64,000 nucleotides of DNA from a virus. Positions 2,345 through 13,936 of this stretch are shown here, in pieces. Numbering within the stretch: the first letter of the stretch is position 1; every line of letters starts with the position of its first letter. The notes below the pieces were generated by a model. That model had not been told where the DNA came from. It made no database searches and was given only the letters and a program-made list of their open reading frames with translations. The stretch is from the IMG/VR virus record IMGVR_UViG_3300017917_000199, positions 1-64,000 of that record. The stretch is one strand, 5' to 3'. The position numbers and the translations under genes were made by a program.

Positions 2345-2532
2345 CTCTCCACATCTGTGATATCCATCTTGATTGTACTCTTTGGGTCGAATTCAATAGT
2401 GACGTTGGGACCAATGCCACTAACTGATTCTTCGGTCCAAACAACTCGGTCTAAGTCATACATTTCAAAGACTTCTTTGAGTTTTTCGTATTGGTTTCTT
2501 GTTATAACAATTCGTGTCATTATGTTCCCCAT
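2338..2532 (-). CDS. Hypothetical protein
   Basis: ORF fills gap in a tightly packed operon. Confidence 0.55.
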   Translation of the reverse strand: MGNIMTRIVITRNQYEKLKEVFEMYDLDRVVWTEESVSGIGPNVTIEFDPKSTIKMDITDVESW

Positions 2533-3368
2533 TCGTTCTTAAACAATGGCACTTGCAGTCTGTCACTATATCGCCATCCCCTATTCATTGCTTCAATTGC
2601 TACATTACGTGCGTTCAAACTATAGATAGATTCAACACCACCACACGGCATCAGGTATACAGGACCAGTAAAGCCACGCTTGCGATATTCGTCTACCGCT
2701 TGCTCTGCTTCTTTTACATCTTCCTTAGTCGCAACAACAAACTTGAGATATACGAATCCGTACATCTTGTAGCTTGAGACAACATCAGGACAGATAGCAT
2801 CTTCCCACTTCTCACCGCTGATGCTAAGTTTGGGACTGACACTGAATGTAATCGCATCTTTAGCACGATGCTTTTGCCACGTGTTTAAGTATTTACCAAA
2901 CTCATCACTGATTTTTTGAGTGCCGTTTGTTTCAAACGTCATCTCTTTCAATGATTTCATTTTGTCGTGCGAAAGTAAGTCCGGATACGCTCTTTGCCAT
3001 CCAAGTAGAGGTTCCCCGCCCGTGATAACCAAGTGTTCATCCATCCAACGACCTCGAGGGAGTGTATCCACAATAGCATTAGCAATAGCATCGGAACTGA
3101 GCACAGGACTAAGATGTTTGAAACGAACGTCCCAAGATGCATAACTATCACATCCAGTACTGACAAGCGGTAAGGATTTATAATCTGTAAAATTTTCTGC
3201 ATTAATCGCAATTGTGTCCCTCTCTGTACTCATTTCACCTTTAGGCATTCCAAACCCACCGCAAGTGAAGTTGCATCCAAATGTACGCAAGAATACACTC
3301 GGTACGCCGAGGTATTTTCCCTCTCCTTGTATTGAATAAAATAATTCAGAAACCTTTATTTGTGACAT
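2520..3368 (-). CDS. queE: 7-carboxy-7-deazaguanine synthase (radical SAM)
   Basis: SELFYSIQGEG, VFLRTFGCNFTC...GCDS, ITGGEPLL, FETNGT, VSPK; context with queD and folE. Confidence 0.9.
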   Translation of the reverse strand: MSQIKVSELFYSIQGEGKYLGVPSVFLRTFGCNFTCGGFGMPKGEMSTERDTIAINAENFTDYKSLPLVSTGCDSYASWDVRFKHLSPVLSSDAIANAIVDTLPRGRWMDEHLVITGGEPLLGWQRAYPDLLSHDKMKSLKEMTFETNGTQKISDEFGKYLNTWQKHRAKDAITFSVSPKLSISGEKWEDAICPDVVSSYKMYGFVYLKFVVATKEDVKEAEQAVDEYRKRGFTGPVYLMPCGGVESIYSLNARNVAIEAMNRGWRYSDRLQVPLFKNEWGT

Positions 3369-3959: not shown

Positions 3960-4172
3960 TTAACCAACGCCTTTACTCAACTCGAAATGTTTTTTAATGT
4001 GATAACTCGGCCATTCAACTTTCATAGTCACTTGTGACATACCCTCGTCAGCAGCCTTCATACATTCCTGAACAATCAACTCGGCGAACATTTGAAAATT
4101 GTCAGCTTGGATATGTAGGTCTTTTTCTGAAAATTCAGCCTGTCTAGCAAGTTCTTTAATTCGTTCGTTCAT
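3960..4172 (-). CDS. Small hypothetical phage protein
   Basis: Start at ATG 4172 overlaps the upstream TGA (ATGA); MNERIKELA...FAELIVQEC. Confidence 0.6.
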   Translation of the reverse strand: MNERIKELARQAEFSEKDLHIQADNFQMFAELIVQECMKAADEGMSQVTMKVEWPSYHIKKHFELSKGVG

Positions 4173-5338
4173 ACTAATTCTGAAATTTGTTTTGCTGTAA
4201 CAGGACCTAATGTCCAACCTAAATGTCCGTGTCCTGTATTATAGAACACTCTACTGTTTTTGTCACTACGTTTGGTAATAGGCATCATGTTGGGTGTCAT
4301 TGGTCGTAAACATGCCCAACTTGTATAATCGTGTGTATTGATATCTGGGAAGTTAGTATGAACCCAATTTAATAATGGTTCAATTCTATCTCTTAGAATA
4401 TCATAGTTTTCGCCATTCAATTCAGCAGTACCTGCAACACGGAATCTATTACCTAAACTACTTGTGACAATTTTAGCTTGGTCATCTAGTAAACTTAACT
4501 TAGGTAAGTATTTAGGGTCAACATTGTTAATCGTAATAGAATATCCTTTGACTGGATAGATATCTAATGTGTCACCTACTTGTTTAGCTAAGTCTACACT
4601 GCCCACGCCTGCAGAGATAACTACAGAATCAAAACCGTCAATAGACAATAACAAATTAACATCAGGTGATGTATTGTAATTGAATTTCACCTTGTATTTT
4701 GTCTCTAATACATGTGCTAGTTCGTAACAAAACTTGTGAATATCGCCAACCCAATCGCTGGGAGTCCAAGATGCACCAATCATATCTTTTATTTTAGACA
4801 GTGCTTTGTCTTTAGATTTTGCATCGGATTCGCTTAATAGTTGCCATTCGCCGCCATTGGCTTCATATAATTGTTTAACATCTACTGCGTTATTCCAATA
4901 CTGTTCATCTTTATAGAAATGCAATATTCCACAATTACTTCTGTCAAACTCTATATTTTCTTCACGGCAAATTTCGTCATATAGTTTGCGTGATTCAACA
5001 CCTAGTTGAATTGTCTTTGCTGTGTTGTGACCATAATCACCGATGATAGTGTGATACAAGAATTTTATCATCCACTTAAACATTTTATAGTCTAAGCGTG
5101 GGCGAATCAGCAGTGGTGCATCTTTAGTGAACATCCACTTGATGCCCTTTTTAACATTAGACCAAGTAGTCCAAACCTCGCTGTTACTAACAGAGATTTG
5201 ACCTCCGTTAGCGTAACTGGTCTTCATAGCAGGATAACGCTCTTGCTCATATACAGTTACATTATAACCCTTTTTTGCAAGATAATATGCTGTTGTGATA
5301 CCTGTGATACCGGCACCTATAACTGCTACATTCTTCAT
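4169..5338 (-). CDS. dadA: FAD-dependent D-amino-acid dehydrogenase-like oxidoreductase
   Basis: VAVIGAGITG, TSYANGGQIS, IYPVKGYS, WACLRPMTP, NTGHGHLGWT motifs. Confidence 0.85.
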   Translation of the reverse strand: MKNVAVIGAGITGITTAYYLAKKGYNVTVYEQERYPAMKTSYANGGQISVSNSEVWTTWSNVKKGIKWMFTKDAPLLIRPRLDYKMFKWMIKFLYHTIIGDYGHNTAKTIQLGVESRKLYDEICREENIEFDRSNCGILHFYKDEQYWNNAVDVKQLYEANGGEWQLLSESDAKSKDKALSKIKDMIGASWTPSDWVGDIHKFCYELAHVLETKYKVKFNYNTSPDVNLLLSIDGFDSVVISAGVGSVDLAKQVGDTLDIYPVKGYSITINNVDPKYLPKLSLLDDQAKIVTSSLGNRFRVAGTAELNGENYDILRDRIEPLLNWVHTNFPDINTHDYTSWACLRPMTPNMMPITKRSDKNSRVFYNTGHGHLGWTLGPVTAKQISELV

Positions 5339-6486
5339 TGTTGGCCCTTCAAAATTGCTACCATTCTAGTAGCTAAATCACGAAACCACTGTTCATTATG
5401 ACCACGAGTAGTCTCAGCCGCGACTCCTATGCGTACTCCTGATGTTTCAGCAAAGCTACGTGTTTCACCTGGCACACCATTTTTGTTTGCTATAATACCG
5501 TGTTGCTCTAATAAATCAGCATACTCTCTACCGCTAAGTTTTTCATTAGTCAAATCGATAGTAAACATATGGCTTTTAGTGCCATTGCTTATGACCTTAA
5601 CGCCTGCTTGGATAAAGGTCTCTACCATAGCATCAGCATTGATTCTTATCTGTCGAGCATATTGCTTAAACTCTGGTTGCAACGCTTCATAGAAGCATTG
5701 TGCTTTACCTGCAATAATATGCATTAATGGTCCACCTTGGGTACCAGGAAATACAGCACTATTAATTCGTTTACTGTAGTCTGGATTATTCCAAAGAATC
5801 ATTCCTCCTCTAGGGCCGCGCAGACCCTTGTGTGTTGTAGTAGTAACAACATCAGCATAAGGAAACGGATTAGGATATTCGCCACCTACAATTAATCCAC
5901 TGTAATGACTTACATCAGCTAATAATGTTGCACCAACACTATTAGCAATTTCACGGAATCTATCCCAATCAATTACTTGACTATATGCGCTTGCACCAGC
6001 AATTAGCATTTTAGGCTTCGTATCCTGAACTAGTTTTGCTACTGCATTATAGTCAATAAATCCCTGACTATCAACTCCGTAAGTATGTGAAACAAACCAT
6101 GAACCACTAGCATTGACTTTAGCACCGTGACTCAAATGCCCACCACTTGCTAAGTCCATACCCACTACAATATCACCTGGAGTTAGGAATGCCTTGAACA
6201 CTGCTAGATTAGCATTAGCTCCGCTATGTGGTTGCACATTAGCGAACGAACACCCGAACAACTTAGTAGCGTATTCAATGGCAATGTTTTCAATCTCATC
6301 TACATTGACACATCCATTATAATAACGTTTGCCTGGAAGTCCTTCTGCGTATTTGTTAGTGAGAATACTTCCACATAACTCCATTACTTCTTTGCTAGTG
6401 TAATTTTCGCTAGCGATAAGTTCAATCGTATTTTTTTGTCTGTTAGCCTCATTTAATAAGGCTGTGTTAATTCTTGGGTCTAACAT
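5335..6486 (-). CDS. glyA: Serine hydroxymethyltransferase
   Basis: LIASEN, NKYAEG, QPHSG, GGHLSHG, TTTTHKGLRGPRGG (PLP lysine), FPGTQGGP; start at 6486 has SD GAGGA. Confidence 0.95.
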   Translation of the reverse strand: MLDPRINTALLNEANRQKNTIELIASENYTSKEVMELCGSILTNKYAEGLPGKRYYNGCVNVDEIENIAIEYATKLFGCSFANVQPHSGANANLAVFKAFLTPGDIVVGMDLASGGHLSHGAKVNASGSWFVSHTYGVDSQGFIDYNAVAKLVQDTKPKMLIAGASAYSQVIDWDRFREIANSVGATLLADVSHYSGLIVGGEYPNPFPYADVVTTTTHKGLRGPRGGMILWNNPDYSKRINSAVFPGTQGGPLMHIIAGKAQCFYEALQPEFKQYARQIRINADAMVETFIQAGVKVISNGTKSHMFTIDLTNEKLSGREYADLLEQHGIIANKNGVPGETRSFAETSGVRIGVAAETTRGHNEQWFRDLATRMVAILKGQQ

Positions 6487-7129
6487 CTTTATCCTCTTCG
6501 TACATAACTGTAGTAGAATCACCTAAATACCATTTAGGATTAGTTTCCACTACATACTTCTTAGTGCATACTTTGAAATCAGGGAATAGCAATTCTTTTG
6601 GATTGCTTGCTGCATCTAAAAATATACAACGATTGTTTGGTTGTGCTGCATATTGTCCGTTATCTAATTCAATAAAGTTAAAACTTTTATGGTCTTCTGG
6701 CCATTCTGAGTAACTAGTATCAATGATGTTTAAATCAGGAGCACAATGGTCTACTGTAAAAAGATAATTACCTTGATAGAAGTTTTTATCCTTAGCGTAA
6801 AATTTGCAACTTAAATTTCGTAAGAATGATTTTTGTACAACAGTAAAGTCATAGCTAAAACAATCCCAAATTTGCAGGGTGTCTAAATCTAGAAACTTTT
6901 CAGCTTCTAGATTTTTATTTCTACTAACAAACGCATGTAGGGGCAGCTTGTCATATAATGCCCCATACTTGGGTAAATATGCTTCTATCCTAAATGCTTG
7001 ACTACGTAGGCTTTTTATACTTACCCATATACAGGGTTCATACTCTCCATGACCCTTTTCAAAATCGTATAGAAATTCTTTTCGGACATAGCAATGTATT
7101 GGTGGTATATTTGCTGTTAGATGAGCCAT
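6467..7129 (-). CDS. Hypothetical phage protein (AQPNNR motif)
   Basis: 220-aa ORF coupled to the queD stop; function unknown. Confidence 0.7.
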   Translation of the reverse strand: MAHLTANIPPIHCYVRKEFLYDFEKGHGEYEPCIWVSIKSLRSQAFRIEAYLPKYGALYDKLPLHAFVSRNKNLEAEKFLDLDTLQIWDCFSYDFTVVQKSFLRNLSCKFYAKDKNFYQGNYLFTVDHCAPDLNIIDTSYSEWPEDHKSFNFIELDNGQYAAQPNNRCIFLDAASNPKELLFPDFKVCTKKYVVETNPKWYLGDSTTVMYEEDKDVRPKN

Positions 7130-7632
7130 TATGCAAATAAATCCTCATTCCATTCACGATGACCTTCTCTAAAAGCCATGTTGCTTTGTGTTTCTCTAAC
7201 TTCTACACGGTAGCACCATAGTCTAGCAGCCTCACCCGGACCCCACATTTCAGGGATATAAACACCATTCACATACTTGTAAAGCATATCACTCAACCCT
7301 TCACACCCTAGTCGAGGTAGAATTGTGAGTTTAGCCATTTTCTTAGCTTCAAGCAGTTTGAATGTTTCAAGTTCTGGATCGTCTTGTGCGACCAATAGAG
7401 TGTGGTCAAATTGACTTTCTAATGTCTTCTTTAGTTCTTTGAGTCCACCATAATCAGCAGCCCAATTGCGAACATCTAACTCATTGGTTCCGAAATAAAA
7501 TTTCATACTGAAACTATATCCATGAATTAGATTGCAGTGACTATCAGCACGCCATTGACGATACGCACATGGGAATGCATCATGGTACTCTTTAGTACTT
7601 ACATATTTGTATGTTATTGGTTGTAATGCCAT
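7129..7632 (-). CDS. queD: 6-carboxy-5,6,7,8-tetrahydropterin synthase (PTPS/QueD family)
   Basis: HCNLIHGY, DYGGLK, FDHTLL, E-x-L, VEVRET motifs. Confidence 0.85.
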   Translation of the reverse strand: MALQPITYKYVSTKEYHDAFPCAYRQWRADSHCNLIHGYSFSMKFYFGTNELDVRNWAADYGGLKELKKTLESQFDHTLLVAQDDPELETFKLLEAKKMAKLTILPRLGCEGLSDMLYKYVNGVYIPEMWGPGEAARLWCYRVEVRETQSNMAFREGHREWNEDLFA

Positions 7633-7702
7633 TGTTTTCTCCTATGTTAATTTTAGCATAGGCAGCAGAATTTGTAAAGCGGGATGACGCCGAAGACCGC
7701 TA
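7633..7702 (-). ncRNA. Candidate preQ1-I-like riboswitch in the queD 5' UTR with an SD-sequestering hairpin
   Basis: AGCGG-UCUUCGGCGUCAUC-CCGCU-UUACAAA-UUCUGCUGCC, then CCUAUG/CAUAGG stem over SD AGGAG; begins about 5 nt after TAAATA (7707-7712). Confidence 0.55.
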
Positions 7703-7719
7703 TAGTTATTTACCAAAAT

Positions 7720-8013
7720 TTATTTGTATAGTTCCAAAAGCATACGGTACTTCTCATATGCTTCTTTGATTGCAGGATGTTGTTTACGCATCCATGCTTC
7801 GTCACGTTGGTCCTGCCACAACTTAGTGTATTCGTAATCAATCTCAACCAAATGGTCAAAACTGCGGCGTGGAATTTCTATGTCAATCGTTTCTTCACGG
7901 TCACTAATATATTGTGATGCCTTCATGTTATAATAGTCAATACTACGGCGTTCACGATTTACTTGAATGTTTCTAACATTATACCGATTTGCGAATTCGT
8001 GATACTTGTCCAT
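7720..8013 (-). CDS. Hypothetical protein
   Basis: ORF; C-terminal P..KEAYEKY..LL.L helix. Confidence 0.6.
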   Translation of the reverse strand: MDKYHEFANRYNVRNIQVNRERRSIDYYNMKASQYISDREETIDIEIPRRSFDHLVEIDYEYTKLWQDQRDEAWMRKQHPAIKEAYEKYRMLLELYK

Positions 8014-8015
8014 AA

Positions 8016-8489
8016 TTATTTACCATTTTTCTTATTGTTCTCTGCCTCGGCAACACGTTTACGTAAGCTAGAACTACTAAAACTATGGTCACGACGGTTG
8101 AAGATATGGTGAATACCTCTGCCAACTCCCTCGTTGCGGCCAGTAAAGTTCGTATCTTCGTATTCTACACCTAACACGCGAACGTCTAATGGTAGTGTCA
8201 ATATCAAATCGACCAAATCACGCTCAGTCTCGTACACTACGATTTCATCTACGAAACGACATGCACTTAATTGTATTTGACGCTCTACTAAACTTTGTAC
8301 AGGTTTATTTTTAGTATCGGGTCTATCAATAGTAGGGTCAGTTTGTAGACCACAAATTAAATAATCACAATGGTTCTTAGCTTCTGCTAACATTGCAATA
8401 TGCCCTGCATGTAATAAGTCAAAGGTACTGAAAGTGATACCAATCTTTTTACCTTGTTCTTTAAGTTCTTTAATTTTATTAAAAATCAT
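8016..8489 (-). CDS. Cytidylyltransferase (TagD/glycerol-3-phosphate cytidylyltransferase-like)
   Basis: STFDLLHAGH (HIGH motif), GLQTD, RDHSFSSSSLR. Confidence 0.85.
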   Translation of the reverse strand: MIFNKIKELKEQGKKIGITFSTFDLLHAGHIAMLAEAKNHCDYLICGLQTDPTIDRPDTKNKPVQSLVERQIQLSACRFVDEIVVYETERDLVDLILTLPLDVRVLGVEYEDTNFTGRNEGVGRGIHHIFNRRDHSFSSSSLRKRVAEAENNKKNGK

Positions 8490-8677
8490 TCTTTTGCCTT
8501 TTTAATAACTTGCTCTGCGATAACACTGCTCTTAGCATCTTGGATAGACATTTGATGCAATTGATCGGCACAACGACCAATTTCAATACTAACTTTACAT
8601 GTACCGCATTCTTCTTCCACTAACCTACGAATCTCGTGTAGTGCTATAACTGCATCGACTAGTTTAAGATTCCTCAT
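8486..8677 (-). CDS. Hypothetical protein
   Basis: ORF overlapping neighbours. Confidence 0.55.
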   Translation of the reverse strand: MRNLKLVDAVIALHEIRRLVEEECGTCKVSIEIGRCADQLHQMSIQDAKSSVIAEQVIKKAKE

Positions 8678-8915: not shown

Positions 8916-8977
8916 TTCAACCTACGAACGATTGACACCGTGACTGCAACAACAACCAGTAGAATTATTAAATTCAT
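8912..8977 (-). CDS. 21-aa hydrophobic micro-protein MNLIILLVVVAVTVSIVRRLK
   Basis: Manual translation; ATGA overlaps with both the folE stop and the next start. Confidence 0.6.
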   Translation of the reverse strand: MNLIILLVVVAVTVSIVRRLK

Positions 8978-9651
8978 TTACCCATCCTAGCAATTGCTAA
9001 GAATTCGTTTCGTGCTGCAGGATCAGTTTTGAACCCACCACCTAAACGAACAGTAACAGTACTAGAACCAGTATCTTCCACGCCGCGGCTCTTAACGCAA
9101 TAATGTTGTGCGTCAATTAAAACGGCGACATCTTCAGTTTCAAGGATATATTGTAGGGTGTGGAATATTTGTTCAGTAAGTCGCTCTTGAATTTGAGGTC
9201 TCTTAGAGAAGTATTCCACAATGCGGTTAATCTTACTGAGTCCGAGGACTCTTTGCTTAGGAACATAAGCAACAGTCGCCAAGCCATCAATAACGACAAA
9301 ATGATGTTCACAATTACTCTGGACTGAAACGTTACGTTCCACGACCATTTCATTATAGTGCATTTTATTGTCAACAGTCGTACACTTCGGGAACGCTTCA
9401 TAATCTAACCCCCAGAAAATTTCATTGACATACATTTTAGCAACACGCTTAGGTGTTTCAATTAGACTATCATCTGTTAAGTCTAGCCCTAACGTCTGCA
9501 TGATAGAATGGAAATGTGCTTCGATTTTTTCAATCTTATCCTTACGGTCAAGACTGACAGGTTTAGTCGGGGTTTCAACGCCCATCTTAACTAGATGTTC
9601 GTGTACTCGTTGACCCAACTCGGGGTCGCATTTTGTTTTATTATAAGACAT
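8974..9651 (-). CDS. folE: GTP cyclohydrolase I
   Basis: ETPKRVAKMY, CEHH, GLSKINRIV, RPQIQERLT, HYCVKSRG. Confidence 0.95.
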   Translation of the reverse strand: MSYNKTKCDPELGQRVHEHLVKMGVETPTKPVSLDRKDKIEKIEAHFHSIMQTLGLDLTDDSLIETPKRVAKMYVNEIFWGLDYEAFPKCTTVDNKMHYNEMVVERNVSVQSNCEHHFVVIDGLATVAYVPKQRVLGLSKINRIVEYFSKRPQIQERLTEQIFHTLQYILETEDVAVLIDAQHYCVKSRGVEDTGSSTVTVRLGGGFKTDPAARNEFLAIARMGK

Positions 9652-10226: not shown

Positions 10227-11420
10227 TTAGTATTTTGTCTCACGTGTATGCTTACGATAATCTGTACTCATACGCAAATATTTGTCACCCTTGCCTTCAA
10301 GAATGTCACAAATTCTATCTATCGTTTTATCATTGTAATCAGAAATTTTACCTTGATTACGATGTGGTTCATGTATTGCTTTGTAAAGTTTGATAGCGGC
10401 ATCATCAACAGACCATGGAACATACAGTCTGTCTGCATCATTCGCAAATGTTTCTGGGAATGAACGATAAGCTGGATATACAACATTACATCCCAATGCA
10501 TCTGCCTCGCTTACTGTGTTACTTACCCAATCTTGTAAAGCACAATTAAACATTACTTTACTGTCGTTCAACAATTCGTAATATTTGTTTTTATCAAGGT
10601 CTTGATAAATTGCTAATTTACCTTCACTACGCATTTTATATGTACGATCCATATAGCTTTGATTGTTGCTACGTAATGGTGCACCACTAAGAACAGCAAA
10701 AGTTGTATACTTTTTTTGTTGGTCGAAACGTTTGTAATATTCTTCAATCACATCCATGAAGAAGTCAGGTTGCTTTTCTTGATCCCAACGTGCGGCAAAT
10801 ACAACACGATTTTCTCTTTCAAAGAAAGGCTTGATAGATTGAACACGACTGCGAACTTCGTCTTTGCCAAATGCTAGACCACTGATGTTGTAGATCGGTG
10901 CTTCCCAACCTGCAATCTTCATGTGCATGACCATTTCTTCATTAGTCGCCAGAATTGCGCCTCCGCTCTGGCGAACTGCCTCGCACACCATTTTCTCGTA
11001 GTGGCCCATCCACTTGGCCATTCCCCAAACGTGAACAAAATCATCAGGATCAATAGACTGTGCAAGACAACGGACATAAATCTTCGGAGCGTGATGTGCA
11101 GAAACCTGATTAAGGATATAAGGCAAACTCTCAAAGCCCGGTTGGAACATGTCTTCAAAGTATATAACATCTTCACTTGTCACTTGTCCTTCTTTCATCA
11201 GTTTAACAAGATTCATTAACTGACTCATGCCAAAATAACTACGACCGTGTGCATCTAATACTTGACCTGTTACAATTGCTTGGTCACTAGTTAATGTGTC
11301 ACCGGGCACAATAACATAATCGATACCGCGGCGTTTAAATACACGCTCATTCCACTCTTGCAATTGCAATGTATAACGTGCTTTGTAGGGCTCTAAGCCC
11401 ATATAAAATAATTTACGCAT
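10227..11420 (-). CDS. Glycosyltransferase, GT-B fold
   Basis: VVFAARWDQEKQP, DWVSNTVSEA..LGC, YRSFPE motifs. Confidence 0.7.
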   Translation of the reverse strand: MRKLFYMGLEPYKARYTLQLQEWNERVFKRRGIDYVIVPGDTLTSDQAIVTGQVLDAHGRSYFGMSQLMNLVKLMKEGQVTSEDVIYFEDMFQPGFESLPYILNQVSAHHAPKIYVRCLAQSIDPDDFVHVWGMAKWMGHYEKMVCEAVRQSGGAILATNEEMVMHMKIAGWEAPIYNISGLAFGKDEVRSRVQSIKPFFERENRVVFAARWDQEKQPDFFMDVIEEYYKRFDQQKKYTTFAVLSGAPLRSNNQSYMDRTYKMRSEGKLAIYQDLDKNKYYELLNDSKVMFNCALQDWVSNTVSEADALGCNVVYPAYRSFPETFANDADRLYVPWSVDDAAIKLYKAIHEPHRNQGKISDYNDKTIDRICDILEGKGDKYLRMSTDYRKHTRETKY

Positions 11421-11692: not shown

Positions 11693-12145
11693 TTAAATAG
11701 CGAGTTGTTGATAAGGTTGATTAAGATTATAGTATATCGTAGCACCGTTCTCCCCGTCTTCTGAAACGGTAATTTCGATATTACGATTGGGATAACGACT
11801 TGCGATTTGCTCATAGAGGTCATCGCTAATCATTTCACACGACTTGAAATTCAATTCAAGTGTACCGCCAACATAGAGGTTCTCTAGCCAACGCTTGAAT
11901 TGAATGAATTCAATATCCCTGTCATTGTGAAATACTTCAATCGCCACGTTAAAGTGAAAGATGTGACGATGTGGAGTTCCTAGAAAGCTAACATCATACT
12001 GATCTCCTGTCTTTAATGCAGGATCAGTTGCTGCCGCAGGATACATATGAATACCTTCTTTCTGAAAGGTAACAAAAATCATGCGTTTAGCTTTATCTTT
12101 AATTCGCTGTCGTTGTTCAAACAATATTTGTTCTCTCTGTTCCAT
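11693..12145 (-). CDS. QueD/PTPS-like T-fold protein
   Basis: EGIH...PHRHIFH, RDIEF, SCEM, VSEDGENG; pattern parallels the QueD HxH, E and V.E motifs. Confidence 0.55.
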   Translation of the reverse strand: MEQREQILFEQRQRIKDKAKRMIFVTFQKEGIHMYPAAATDPALKTGDQYDVSFLGTPHRHIFHFNVAIEVFHNDRDIEFIQFKRWLENLYVGGTLELNFKSCEMISDDLYEQIASRYPNRNIEITVSEDGENGATIYYNLNQPYQQLAI

Positions 12146-12357
12146 TATCGGTCGTCCTCAAAATCGACACGCTCATGGTCATATTCATATTGAGCACGGC
12201 GCAGTTGCTGTAGTTCTGTTAGATATTTCTGCTTTGTTTCACGTAGTTTTTTAATTTTATCAGAATCACCTACTCCTGACTTCTCTAGTTGGAACAATTG
12301 ATTGTCAACTAAACGATGTGATTCTTCCAAACTTTTAATTCGTTGTTTATATGGCAT
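12145..12357 (-). CDS. Small coiled-coil protein (DUF465-like)
   Basis: LEESHRLVD...LRETK..L pattern. Confidence 0.55.
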   Translation of the reverse strand: MPYKQRIKSLEESHRLVDNQLFQLEKSGVGDSDKIKKLRETKQKYLTELQQLRRAQYEYDHERVDFEDDR

Positions 12358-12358
12358 G

Positions 12359-13936
12359 TTATTCTCCTAATGCTATTTGCATTTCGTCATCACTATCCTC
12401 AATGATTTCATCAACTTCTGGATCGTTATTTTCAACTTCAAATAATTGGTCAAACATAGTCATTGCATTAACTGTTTTCTTACCACTAATACCTTGACTA
12501 CCTGATTGCATTTGCATCCACAAACTACTGTATGAGTTTATCAAATCTAAACTCTTTTGTCTGTCTTTTAGGCTAAAGATTTCATCGATAATATCACCGA
12601 AATGATAATTATCAAATTTATTCATAACCATTTTGGGCATAATACCTTGTTCATAGCGTCTGTTAGCTTCTTGTACTGCGGCAATGTGCTGATAGACATT
12701 ATGACTTTGGATAAGTGTGTAGCTTAGTGTATCCCAAGAGGTTTTAGTTTCCTTACCTTGTTGGTTAATAAAACCTTGACCACGATAACAAACATCTTTC
12801 ATAGTTAGTAAGTCAGTTACTGGACTATCTGTAAAGACTTTATGGATACCGTCTTGCAAACATGCATCACTGTACTTACGACTATCACCACCTTGTGCAC
12901 CATTTGAAGCTACACCATACTTCTTATCCTCAGCAGTTTTTTCCATAGCATATGCCCACTTCTTACCATGCTCGAAACTGTTGTTGAAATACGCTAGACC
13001 TTTAGCTGCACTAAAGAATGGACTTGCACAGTCAAACGTGATATGTAAACTTGGGTTGTGATACTTGCGAATAGCTTTTTGAATATCAGTAAACAATACT
13101 GCATATTCTAGTATCGATACACCCAAACAGTGAATTAAATCGTGCTTACCTTCTTCAAGTAATCCATCATGTATAATGTCAACAAGTCTACGTAGCATCA
13201 AGTGTACGTCAATCTTGTTTTGACCACCAAATGCCCAACCATTAAAGTGATTATCTGGATAGACTTTTGGATCGCAATACTTCTTCATTTCACGATACCA
13301 ATCATCACTTTGGGTATGATTGCGACCTTGCAACACATTTAAGAACTTACAGTTACCATTACGGTTCTTAATAAAGTATTCGTTATTGATATGGGTAGCT
13401 GCTATTGCTTCTTCAATTGTACTGATACCGTGTGCTGATTTACCAGTCTTAGGATCCTTGATATGGAAGGTCGTTAAGGACTGAGAAGGAATATCCAAAC
13501 ACATACCATAATCCATGTATGTATCCATCCATTTCAACACTTGCTGACGCTTAGCCATAGCACGTGGGCAATTGGGATCTTTCCAATCAGCAGGCCATTG
13601 ACATTTTAGAATCTGGAAACCACCTGAATCACCCAGCATGAATGTACCATTTTCACGCTCACGTATAATACTTTCACTAGGATCATCTTTGGTAGGATCT
13701 AAGTTAGCATGACCTGCAGAATATAGACCCCACTTGTATGTGTAGAGTCCTTCTTTACTGTTAAGAAAGTTTAGTTTCTCAACGTCACCATTAAATGCCG
13801 CAGGTATACGTGCAGCATCAAAGTATTGTTCACCTTTGCGTTGTTTGCCTAATCCAGAAATGTAAAAACTAGACACTGCTGGTAAGAACAGTGCCCAGTC
13901 TGGCTTTTGCTGACTTGAAAGATTAACTTGCTTCAA
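12359..13936 (-). CDS. dpdA: TGT-fold guanine transglycosylase (DpdA-like 7-deazaguanine DNA insertase)
   Basis: DSGGFQ, LDIP, VLQG, GWAFGG, HCLGVS, TFDCASP motifs; clustered with folE, queD and queE. Confidence 0.75.
   Translation of the reverse strand: MKQVNLSSQQKPDWALFLPAVSSFYISGLGKQRKGEQYFDAARIPAAFNGDVEKLNFLNSKEGLYTYKWGLYSAGHANLDPTKDDPSESIIRERENGTFMLGDSGGFQILKCQWPADWKDPNCPRAMAKRQQVLKWMDTYMDYGMCLDIPSQSLTTFHIKDPKTGKSAHGISTIEEAIAATHINNEYFIKNRNGNCKFLNVLQGRNHTQSDDWYREMKKYCDPKVYPDNHFNGWAFGGQNKIDVHLMLRRLVDIIHDGLLEEGKHDLIHCLGVSILEYAVLFTDIQKAIRKYHNPSLHITFDCASPFFSAAKGLAYFNNSFEHGKKWAYAMEKTAEDKKYGVASNGAQGGDSRKYSDACLQDGIHKVFTDSPVTDLLTMKDVCYRGQGFINQQGKETKTSWDTLSYTLIQSHNVYQHIAAVQEANRRYEQGIMPKMVMNKFDNYHFGDIIDEIFSLKDRQKSLDLINSYSSLWMQMQSGSQGISGKKTVNAMTMFDQLFEVENNDPEVDEIIEDSDDEMQIALGE

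Follow-up and report, generated by a model that had tools for sequence, protein, structure and literature searches.

The window analysed here is a stretch of 64,000 nucleotides of viral DNA (positions 1 to 64,000 of the 85-kb IMG/VR record IMGVR_UViG_3300017917_000199), and the feature under study lies on its minus strand, in the 5′ leader of a queD-like gene. Near this leader are genes for FolE, the QueD-like protein itself, a QueE-like protein, a protein with the DpdL motif and a DpdA-like candidate, in agreement with the 7-deazaguanine DNA-modification context proposed in the initial annotation. The product of the first gene, 167 aa long, has CxxxHGY where QueD has CxxxHGH, and shares 40-52% identity with the QueD-like genes known from isolated phages. 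It matches the profiles Pfam PTPS (1.7e-15) and phrog_2389 “QueD-like” (3.9e-35), while TIGR03367 QueD gives 34.5 bits, under its cut-off of 89.

The QueE-like assignment comes from phrog_2076 (2e-52), the NCBIfam QueE models staying below their cut-offs, and such a gene occurs in 11 of the 11 large records bearing the element. A DpdL-like gene is present in the same 11 records, and a twelfth one, 58% complete, has none. In the window, the motif LxxxHRHxF, described for DpdL in the excerpted text of PMC10516641, is found in a T-fold protein encoded by the ORF at 11693-12145. The DpdA-like candidate (12359-13936, 525 aa) is proposed on its ESM feature similarity to a TGT-like viral cluster (score 0.93) and on a weak tblastn match to a “TGT domain” protein, while Pfam TGT finds nothing. 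QueC was not found in the window's own record, nor full QueC in 11 large relatives, four of which gave partial matches of at most 30 bits. The island additionally carries SHMT, a DAO-family oxidoreductase, glycosyltransferases and a cytidylyltransferase.

This gene set resembles the DpdL/DpdA3-type 2′-deoxy-7-deazaguanine (dDG) pathway of Cellulophaga phage phiST as given in the excerpted text of PMC10516641, in having FolE, QueD-like, QueE-like and LxxxHRHxF proteins and a distant TGT-like candidate, without a full QueC; the differences here are the CxxxHGY of the QueD-like protein and the extra island genes. The term riboswitch has zero occurrences in that paper. A reading of the first gene as a pterin or folate enzyme outside the 7-deazaguanine pathway, which had rested on null results for Pfam Radical_SAM, QueC and TGT in the record, was dropped on the QueE-like match in PHROGs/NCBIfam and the DpdL motif.

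Ahead of the first gene, the minus strand reads AGCGG (7701-7697), UCUUCGGCGUCAUC (7696-7683), CCGCU (7682-7678) and UUACAAA UUCUGCUG, and then CCUAUG (7662-7657), CUAAAAUUAA, CAUAGG (7646-7641), AGAAAACA and the AUG (7632-7630). Read directly, the part from 7701 to 7661 matches the string of the initial annotation letter for letter. This part, with which the queD-like mRNA would begin, is the element proper, and it folds as an H-type pseudoknot in which P1 is AGCGG/CCGCU and P2 joins GGCG-U-CA with UG-C-UGCC around an invariant U.C mismatch. Several components had already been pointed out and were recovered: a TAAATA box about 5 nt before the leader (7712-7707, then a 5-nt spacer), a 5-bp P1 with a C just before its 3′ strand and an A-rich strand after it, the pairing of the loop GGCG with the tail UGCC, and a separate 6-bp hairpin burying the Shine-Dalgarno (SD) sequence, whose stem covers the AGG of AGGAG. 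The continuation of the GGCG:UGCC pairing past the mismatch through CA:UG was absent from that account. With the TAAATA box as promoter, transcription would begin at the pseudoknot or immediately ahead of it. Of 120 distinct leaders, 96 have a TAA[AG]TA or TA[TC]A[AC]T motif that ends within 16 nt of P1 on its upstream side. The features, all on the minus strand, are as follows.

7707-7712, minus strand: TAAATA, a late-promoter-like box 5 nt upstream of P1, read in the sequence
7697-7701, minus strand: P1 5′ strand AGCGG, covarying with 7678-7682
7692-7696, minus strand: L1 UCUUC; family pattern N-C-U and then a stretch of variable length
7688-7691, minus strand: P2b 5′ strand GGCG; P2b is the part of the pseudoknot helix that varies
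7687, minus strand: U of the U.C mismatch within P2, an invariant column; its partner is C 7665
7685-7686, minus strand: P2a 5′ strand CA, pairing with UG 7666-7667
7683-7684, minus strand: L2 UC; C 7683, at its end, lies directly against P1 and is the candidate base for pairing with a ligand
7678-7682, minus strand: P1 3′ strand CCGCU, covarying with 7697-7701
7668-7677, minus strand: L3 UUACAAAUUC, A-rich; three of its A's are invariant, and so is the UC with which it ends
7665-7667, minus strand: P2a 3′ strand UG (7667-7666) and mismatch C (7665), from alignment and covariation
7661-7664, minus strand: P2b 3′ strand UGCC; its final two bases (7662-7661) also begin the SD-sequestering hairpin
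7641-7662, minus strand: SD-sequestering hairpin CCUAUG (7662-7657), loop CUAAAAUUAA, CAUAGG (7646-7641), from sequence and folding
7639-7643, minus strand: Shine-Dalgarno AGGAG, read in the sequence
7129-7632, minus strand: the regulated first gene, QueD-like, of the PTPS family, 167 aa, from profile matches
7650-7678, minus strand: sigma-70-like promoter TTTACA, 17 nt, TG-n-TAAAAT (10/12 matches), with its -10 inside the hairpin loop

Covariation in two crossing helices

The initial annotation proposed aligning related queD leaders to look for covariation of P1 and P2, and both helices covary in the alignments that we compiled. The first, A1, holds 66 distinct sequences, and the second, A2, holds 129, whose pairs were counted with our own fixed-register parse because MAFFT misplaces the L2 length variants of A2. 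Since all these sequences are kin, neither the counts nor the permutation results below are to be taken as probabilities. In A1, 95.2% of 751 cells are paired and double-sided changes occur in 7 of 12 pairs, values that were reached by none of 500 shuffles, and slid controls were only 32-46% paired. Within A2, all five P1 positions are paired in 119 sequences, four in 8 and three in 2, over several types of helix (AGCGG/CCGCU in 78, UGCGG/CCGCA and AGAGG/CCUCU in 11 each, AGUGG/CCACU in 8 and ACCGG/CCGGU in 7).

The second helix is made up across the family of CA:UG, the U.C mismatch and then 3-7 variable pairs. Its two junction pairs, P2a, are CA:UG in 117 and CG:CG in 12 of the 129 sequences, with no mixed combinations; this is a change that appears in A1 as AU in 59 and GC in 7 sequences at pair 26:46. 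In the variable part, P2b, pairing holds for 439 of 516 cells (85%), against a permutation mean of 267 (52%; 1000 permutations, sd 14, maximum 313). Its four positions are paired in 101, 112, 119 and 107 of the 129 sequences through 53 distinct strand combinations, and one sequence alone (L054) is a misfit to P2b. Taken together, these alignments show that a conserved H-type pseudoknot, maintained by compensating mutations, stands at the head of the queD-like mRNA.

Conservation extends to bases outside the helices. About ten unpaired positions and one mismatch are invariant across 66-129 distinct sequences, where the fixed-register parse of the 129 itself required the U and C of the P2 mismatch and the final C of L2; in A1, both mismatch columns and the column of that final C, which abuts P1, are invariant. 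L1 keeps an invariant C followed by a U conserved in at least 70% of A1. Its first base had been put forward as a signature U and turns out to be variable, the three leading bases being UCU in 48, ACU in 40 and CCU in 38 of the 129 sequences, with another first base in 3. L2 is UC in 86, AC in 18, CC in 13, UUC in 10 and CUC in 2. The 10-nt L3 has the consensus WUAYAAAYUC, with A30, A32, A34, T36 and C37 invariant in A1, and a 6-nt form (UAAUUC in 7 sequences, UAACUC in 1) occurs mostly beside a P1 with only four of five positions paired.

The folding of single sequences gives a different picture. The 101-nt leader has a minimum free energy (MFE) of -14.8 kcal/mol against -15.6 +/- 2.9 for its shuffles (z 0.26), hence no unusual stability, and its MFE structure is another, nested fold in which AGCGGU pairs with CUGCUG. 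We rejected this alternative because UCUGC stays while P1 varies, without covariation: the 26 of 129 sequences with another P1 (AGAGG, AGUGG or ACCGG) keep UCUGC. G.U pairs (40) are not in clear excess over A.C (26) among 1419 cells, and the strand assignment therefore rests on gene orientation.

Gene association and distribution

The element occurs as a single copy, where the queD-like transcription unit starts, and the covariance model scores 68.9 bits there; among the sources searched, the next best score was 13.4, at a relative's locus, and the next in the window's own record was 10.9. Among loci with a second QueD-like type, 78 of 80 carry the element, and it stands directly upstream of the gene in 10 of 80 canonical-QueD loci. 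The association is also seen from the RNA side, since 80 loci found by the RNA pattern alone, among the matches listed, had a PTPS/QueD-family ORF as the first gene in 75 cases and as the second in 3. The other two are contig ends, so that a gene of this family comes first or second in 78 of the 78 assessable loci. In all, the element precedes three divergent types of QueD-family gene, in lineages with different expression platforms.

A degenerate RNA pattern, which covers only the commonest P1, matched 112 of 270 loci and at least 120 viral contigs, and it matched none of 802 sampled bacterial genomes, a small sample from two phyla. Within the sources searched, the element was thus found in phage contigs only. 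Queried by blastn with 1101 nt and with the 57-nt aptamer, 50,697 GenBank phage records yielded nothing beyond chance hits at E=5.

Expression platforms and direction of control

The 3′ strand of P2 shares its last two or three bases with the start of a helix that hides either the SD or the start codon. This overlap, noticed in the initial annotation for the anti-SD arm, is kept in three different designs: CCUAUG:CAUAGG on the SD, as in this window, and GUCRUC:GAUGGC or GYCAUUG:CAAUGGC on the start codon in other lineages. The SD-sequestering hairpin was found in 63 of 118 distinct leaders, and RNAalifold recovers the start-codon helices that overlap P2b. When the 3′ strand of P2b is withheld, the downstream MFE goes, by thermodynamic estimate, from -6.7 to -3.3 kcal/mol in the 63 hairpin leaders, and from -10.3 to -5.8 and from -9.8 to -3.4 in the groups of 36 and 19 leaders with the other two designs. 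There is little covariation within the sequestering helices, since the SD, the AUG or coding constrains one of their arms; one design has two pairs with one double change each, another has one-sided changes only, and a single variant of the SD-hairpin stem was spotted by eye.

Because the 3′ strand of P2 overlaps the helix that hides the SD or the start, this wiring predicts an ON switch, as the initial annotation had supposed, and the pseudoknot probably turns on translation of the queD-like gene. The pseudoknot and the sequestering helix would compete, and whatever stabilises the former would weaken the latter, switching on translation of queD and of the genes behind it.

Candidate effectors and competing readings

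The leader has the general traits of a riboswitch: a covarying 5′-leader aptamer with conserved unpaired bases, a link to the genes of one pathway and, by thermodynamic estimate, mutually exclusive structures. The reading to which we give about an even chance is that the H-type pseudoknot forms the core of a translational RNA switch, most probably a metabolite riboswitch, of a class not yet described. The stabiliser could then be a small molecule with a guanine-like face, stacked between the helices P1 and P2 and forming a pair with L2's invariant cytosine, as in class I preQ1 aptamers. These phages would make 7-deazaguanine through FolE, QueD, QueE and the DpdL-like protein, and since this pathway comes without a full QueC, the candidate ligands are 7-deazaguanine, CDG, a pterin intermediate (H2NTP, CPH4), guanine and the preQ0 or preQ1 of the host. 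A narrower proposal, which we regard as tentative, is a phage-only riboswitch class that senses a metabolite of DNA hypermodification and acts as an ON switch in more than 1000 uncultured jumbo-phage contigs, without a cellular counterpart; its ligand would most likely be 7-deazaguanine or the precursor CDG, and possibly a pterin intermediate made by FolE. An ON switch ahead of a biosynthetic gene is unusual, being odd for a sensor of the end product, and this counts against the metabolite reading.

The predicted direction of control bears as well on a second explanation, where the pseudoknot is a translational operator or activator site. A protein of the phage or of the host would bind it and so expose or mask the ribosome site, without any small-molecule ligand. 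We find this explanation doubtful, yet a live rival with arguments of its own. Conserved structure and loop bases are equally to be expected of a protein site, an ON-type wiring suits the timed activation of a DNA-modification operon, and the occurrence in viral contigs, with nothing in the sampled bacterial genomes, fits a phage protein partner equally well. There are precedents for such components in phages: the Com protein activates translation of mom, the DNA-modification gene of Mu, and the leader of T4 gene 32 contains a pseudoknot. The likeness to mom and Com is that a phage DNA-modification gene comes to be translated once the helix masking its start site is opened, and the difference is that a protein effector there acts beside a simple hairpin, whereas here we find a covarying pseudoknot with riboswitch-like loops. 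Against a protein, no candidate partner was identified, and the strict association with QueD/PTPS genes, over three gene types and differing platforms, is what a sensor of a pathway metabolite predicts. Moreover, the small size, the invariant C beside P1 and the A-rich L3 resemble ligand-binding pseudoknots, as far as the excerpted text of PMC10622847 describes them.

The element might otherwise be a highly divergent true member of class I preQ1, binding preQ1 or preQ0 of the host and regulating the phage queD, an assignment close to that of the initial annotation and one that we consider unlikely. The kinship is nonetheless visible. Both are H-type pseudoknots with a P1 of 5-6 bp (here 5 bp, ending in GG) and an A-rich L3, both stand ahead of 7-deazaguanine or queuosine genes and control translation via the ribosome site, and in both a cytosine immediately precedes the 3′ strand of P1. 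In class I preQ1, according to the excerpted text of PMC10622847, this base pairs with the guanine-like face of the ligand; here it is invariant in A1 and may play the same role.

The Rfam PreQ1 model (RF00522) nevertheless gave no match at 7657-7701, nor anywhere in 7500-7850, at E<=10. Its best match in the 85-kb record, rejected by us, reaches 10.6 bits at 12237-12279, inside a small ORF, and the second one 8.9 bits, away from the element, against a gathering score of 39 bits. P2 is also twice as long, with 7-8 positions, including the conserved mismatch, instead of 3-4 pairs. Its 3′ strand lies 25-45 nt upstream of the SD, the helix ending 18 nt (in this window) to about 45 nt before it, whereas P2 of preQ1-I takes in part of the SD. 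Thus, preQ1-I is an OFF switch in which the ligand hides the SD, while here P2 competes with a separate sequestering helix and ON is predicted. The first base of L1, a conserved ligand-contacting U in preQ1-I, is variable in our family, and the 10-nt L3 with its invariant terminal UC is also unlike that of preQ1-I, as is the occurrence, within the sources searched, in phage contigs only. Finally, phages without a full QueC would have no preQ0 or preQ1 of their own making.

Other known classes do not account for the element either. SAM-II/SAM-V, preQ1-II, SAM/SAH, NAD+-II and fluoride are further H-type pseudoknot riboswitches, likewise compact structures of 5′ leaders that act on the ribosome site, and they differ in gene context; their families gave no match at E<=10 in the 351-nt search. 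The SAM/SAH and NAD+-II riboswitches are mentioned in the excerpted text of PMC10622847. All of Rfam at gathering score gave no match in the whole window, and at E<=10 the region 7500-7850 returned only PsrR1 and Fusobacteriales-1, at 17 bits, which we treated as chance. The same was found elsewhere, with no Rfam match at E<=10 at the element of 15 relatives and none at gathering score in 20 canonical-queD phage loci.

A leader that works without any ligand, through protection of the 5′ end, folding kinetics or as a thermometer, with the competition of the two structures tuning a fixed level of translation, would suit a conserved structure with which the predicted transcript begins. Such a role seems improbable to us: the ten or so invariant unpaired positions and the mismatch exceed what stability needs, and the overlap of P2 with the sequestor is maintained through three expression platforms.

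The weakest reading, that the conservation is at the DNA level, as a terminator of the upstream gene followed by a sigma-70 promoter for queD, the pseudoknot being illusory, can draw on the UUU after P1 in this window and on the extended-TG TTTACA-17-TAAAAT within the leader (a -35/-10-like pair, and candidate promoter, that recurs in 57 of 65 hairpin-type leaders), but we rejected it as largely refuted by covariation and hardly credible, as the compensating changes in two crossing helices are unexplained by a promoter or terminator role, 55 hairpin-less leaders without the internal promoter still keep P1 and P2, a terminator scan of 7000-8600 found none at the element, and a P1 loop of 14 nt followed by just 1-3 U is unlike an intrinsic terminator (GC-rich stem, loop of 3-8 nt, U tract).

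To return to the metabolite riboswitch as the preferred reading, to our knowledge few riboswitches are known in phages, and a literature search through titles, abstract openings and in-paper terms found no published riboswitch for a DNA-hypermodification pathway. What we describe is a knotted RNA ahead of a modified-base gene of uncultured giant phages, represented by more than 100 sequences. If its partner is a protein, it would represent a new translational activator system for DNA-modification genes. With 7-deazaguanine, CDG or a pterin as its ligand instead, the preQ1-like fold would gain a further class of ligand and an ON-type pseudoknot architecture, and the RNA would provide a compact natural sensor of 7-deazapurines of about 45 nt. 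Metabolite binding, if true, would mean that these phages monitor the status of the base-modification chemistry that they carry out.

Leader layout and pseudoknot structure

On the minus strand, an 87-nt gap separates a 97-aa ORF (7720-8013) from the QueD-like ORF (7129-7632), and the leader within it reads as follows.

Leader features read from the sequence
7712-7707, minus: TAAATA box, followed by a 5-nt spacer and P1
7701-7697, minus: AGCGG, 5′ strand of P1, followed by a 14-nt loop
7682-7678, minus: CCGCU, 3′ strand of P1
directly 3′ of CCGCU and before the hairpin, minus: UUACAAAUUCUGCUGCC
7662-7641, minus: hairpin CCUAUG/CAUAGG, masking the AGG of the AGGAG Shine-Dalgarno (SD)
7632, minus: AUG start of the QueD-like ORF

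The leader string of the initial annotation, including its hairpin over the SD, agrees exactly with the sequence. Folded as a single sequence, the leader has ordinary stability (MFE -14.8 kcal/mol vs -15.6 ± 2.9 for shuffles, z 0.26), and its MFE structure is a different, nested fold, other than the pseudoknot. When the leaders of relatives are printed side by side, the hairpin and a downstream strand vary together, in an H-type pseudoknot with the following parts.

Parts of the pseudoknot
7701-7697 with 7682-7678, minus: P1, five pairs
between the P1 5′ strand and P2b, minus: L1, beginning N-C-U
GGCG:UGCC in the window, minus: P2b, 3-7 variable pairs across relatives
U7687 and C7665, minus: invariant U.C mismatch between P2b and P2a
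CA:UG, minus: P2a, two pairs
final base C7683, minus: L2, 2-3 bases, terminal C invariant
after the P1 3′ strand, minus: L3, WUAYAAAYUC

When 66 distinct sequences are aligned with MAFFT, pairing holds in 95.2% of 751 cells, and 7 of the 12 pairs show double-sided changes; neither the pairing nor the covariation score was reached by any of 500 shuffles, and sliding the partners by 1-3 columns as a control left only 32-46% pairing. Because MAFFT misplaces L2 length variants, 129 distinct sequences were also parsed by invariant anchors, with pairs counted in a fixed register. P1 pairs at 5/5 positions in 119 of these, at 4/5 in eight and at 3/5 in two, its common pair sets being AGCGG/CCGCU (78), UGCGG/CCGCA (11), AGAGG/CCUCU (11), AGUGG/CCACU (8) and ACCGG/CCGGU (7). 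P2a takes the form CA:UG in 117 sequences and CG:CG in the other 12, and no sequence combines the two. At the four positions of P2b that adjoin the mismatch, 439 of 516 cells pair, and P2b has 53 distinct strand combinations; the count of 439 compares with a mean of 267 (sd 14, maximum 313) over 1000 partner permutations, although these pairing and covariation figures are not probabilities, because the sequences share kinship. P2b is misfit in a single sequence (the leader L054), and about ten need a one-base bulge. As G.U cells show no clear excess over A.C cells (40 vs 26 among 1419), the gene and SD were used to decide the strand. We consider it close to certain that the conserved pseudoknot structure is real.

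Distribution and gene context

The parent record of the window (IMG/VR, 84,961 bp, estimated 24% complete) holds one copy of the element, with 68.9 bits under the covariance model R1; the next best score among the sources searched, 13.4 bits, falls in a relative's locus. A profile from the 66-sequence alignment finds exactly one copy per locus in 153 loci. IMG/VR contains at least 594 relatives of the QueD-like protein, at least 597 of a second QueD-like type, 38% identical, and 387 of the canonical CxxxHGH QueD type; from these protein counts we infer that the element occurs in more than a thousand IMG/VR contigs. It was not found in GenBank phages by blastn, a low-sensitivity test, and a degenerate RNA pattern had no match in 802 bacterial genomes sampled from two phyla, a result that carries little weight. 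In the protein-first sets, the element lies upstream of three divergent QueD/PTPS-family types.

Gene types behind the element
type 1: 165-192 aa, CxxxHGY, the kind to which the window's gene belongs
type 2: 149-157 aa, CxxxHGY
type 3: 141 aa, canonical CxxxHGH QueD

The window's protein (7129-7632, minus) has CxxxHGY where QueD has CxxxHGH. For the second QueD-like type, R1 recovers the element at 78 of 80 loci; for canonical QueD, 10 of 80 loci have it immediately upstream of the gene. In several phages the operon runs from the element to canonical QueD and then to the HGY-type protein (loci L187, L214, L192 and L199); as both copies sit in tandem behind the same leader, they may differ in job. 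Independently of the proteins, a degenerate RNA pattern in which the commonest P1 was fixed located the element in at least 120 IMG/VR contigs, some repeating earlier ones. Among 80 of these loci, 75 have a QueD/PTPS-family gene as their first ORF and three have one as their second, behind an ORF of 85, 113 or 243 aa; in the remaining two the element is at the end of a contig. Leaders of the 149-aa type (L170, L114, L123, L162, L173, L124, L133 and L153) carry a short aptamer form, which retains P2 and the U.C mismatch; its P1 pairs at 4/5 positions (AAGG/CCUU) and its L3 has 6 nt (UAAUUC) vs the usual 10.

Pathway genes and their neighbours in the window
8974-9651: FolE
7129-7632, minus: QueD-like, phrog_2389
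2520-3368: QueE-like radical SAM protein, phrog_2076 at 2e-52
11693-12145, minus: DpdL-like, 150 aa, L-x3-HRH-x-F motif, phrog_17812, no Pfam match
12146-12357, minus: ORF of roughly 70 codons, occupying the space that separates the DpdL-like gene from the DpdA-like one
12359-13936, minus: DpdA3-like candidate, 525 aa, adjoining the DpdL-like gene (language-model features, weak tblastn)
within 4169-7129, minus, downstream of queD: 220-aa protein, phrog_3704 labelled 'ferredoxin', no Pfam match
within 4169-7129, minus, downstream of queD: serine hydroxymethyltransferase, full-length
within 4169-7129, minus, downstream of queD: DAO-family FAD oxidoreductase

According to passages of PMC10516641, the motif L-x3-HRH-x-F identifies DpdL, a T-fold protein resembling QueD that is put forward as the CDG decarboxylase yielding 7-deazaguanine, and that is found in phages with DpdA3, FolE, QueD and QueE but without QueC. 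The QueE-like protein scores 1e-10 to 1e-13 with NCBIfam QueE models, under their cut-offs. On the strength of this protein and the DpdL motif, we reject a reading of the QueD-like gene as a folate or pterin enzyme outside the 7-deazaguanine pathway. No Pfam, NCBIfam or PHROG model matches the 525-aa protein, which shares 36% identity with hypothetical proteins from the PA5oct group of Pseudomonas jumbo phages. Only its ESM features, close to those of a viral TGT-like cluster (0.93), and a weak tblastn hit to a Vibrio phage protein labelled 'TGT domain' make it TGT-like, so that we keep it as a DpdA3-like candidate. Pfam TGT matched in none of ten records (the window's own and nine large relatives).

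QueE-like and DpdL-like genes are present in all 11 large element-bearing records (62-100% complete), and no DpdL-like gene was matched in a twelfth, 58% complete. QueC gives only partial matches (≤30 bits, ~60 of 210 positions) in four of the 11. ORFs of 210-224 aa in the relatives G016, G013 and G002 match only the C-terminal ~60 positions of Pfam QueC (16-30 bits), and could be divergent QueC-like or unrelated PP-loop/zinc-ribbon proteins. The genes for the 220-aa protein, the hydroxymethyltransferase and the oxidoreductase, whose ends overlap or abut, probably share the queD transcript. Sugar-handling genes (an NAD-dependent epimerase/dehydratase, two GT1-like glycosyltransferases and a cytidylyltransferase-like protein) are interspersed among the deazaguanine genes at 1-2111, 8016-8489 and 10227-11420 (minus). 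The near-complete and large relatives G006-G010 (163-357 kb; the phage records of loci L105, L119, L111, L146 and L107) show 6 to 16 Pfam Radical_SAM matches each, many clustered.

Proposed expression platform and promoter-like sites

The leaders (n=118) were sorted into three designs. In 63, the window's included, the CCUAUG/CAUAGG hairpin follows P2b and shares its first two bases with the end of the P2b 3′ strand. In 36, GUC(A/G)UC, whose GUC ends that same strand, pairs with GAUGGC in the start codon region (RNAalifold, 34 of the 36); in 19, G(C/U)CAUUG pairs with CAAUGGC (17 of the 19), and two pairs show double-sided change, in one sequence each. These sequestor helices show little covariation, since the SD, the AUG or coding constrains one of their two arms. 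When the P2b 3′ strand is available, the mean downstream MFE is -6.7, -10.3 and -9.8 kcal/mol (63, 36 and 19 leaders) and the SD or AUG is covered; when the strand is withheld, the mean weakens to -3.3, -5.8 and -3.4 kcal/mol. Since three unrelated sequestering helices overlap the same pseudoknot strand, we infer that pseudoknot and sequestor exclude each other: a stabilised pseudoknot would take the P2b strand from the sequestering helix, expose the SD or AUG and should turn translation ON.

Of 120 distinct leaders, 96 have a late-type TAA[AG]TA or -10-like TA[TC]A[AC]T box that ends no more than 16 nt before P1, so the pseudoknot would occupy the extreme 5′ end of the mRNA. There is a second promoter-like site within the leader:
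7650-7678, minus: sigma-70-like promoter TTTACA-17 nt-TG-n-TAAAAT, the -10 falling inside the loop of the hairpin over the SD

Such a -35/-10-like pair, with the -10 in the hairpin loop, recurs in 57 of 65 hairpin-type leaders; a transcript starting from it would be without the pseudoknot and the anti-SD arm, and thus an unregulated mRNA.

Known RNA families and candidate functions

A full-text literature search (titles and any abstract openings) found neither a riboswitch nor a structured leader described for the DpdL pathway or for queD of phages; queD does not occur in a 224-motif survey (PMC5737381), nor do queD, deazaguanine, preQ1 or phage in a 2026 preprint on noncoding clusters. Among possible functions other than ligand sensing, an operator bound by a protein is rather unlikely.

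A true but very divergent preQ1 sensor is improbable. Passages of PMC10622847 describe class I preQ1 riboswitches as H-type pseudoknots with a P1 of 5-6 bp, an A-rich L3 in the P1 minor groove, a ~97% conserved specificity cytosine that pairs with the ligand, and a short P2 that takes in SD bases. The phage element shares the H-type pseudoknot with its 5-bp P1, the A-rich L3, the cytosine and the gene context. It departs from the class in its long P2, which contains a conserved mismatch and is placed well ahead of the SD; in addition, the first base of L1 varies, and the wiring appears to be ON. Rfam searches matched no family at the element, including the class I model RF00522 (gathering 39 bits), whose best match in the record (a weak 10.6 bits, inside ORF 12146-12357) is taken as chance. 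The element is thus preQ1-I-like in architecture, as the initial annotation called it, but, weighing shared features against failed ones, we do not file it as a member of that class.

A leader that works independently of any ligand has a small probability. A DNA-level promoter or terminator deserves hardly any credence: the internal TTTACA-17-TAAAAT speaks for it, but a terminator scan of the region found no terminator-like site at the element. The reading that we prefer, with its chances of being right evenly balanced, is that the element switches translation ON in response to a guanine-like small metabolite from the 7-deazaguanine pathway.
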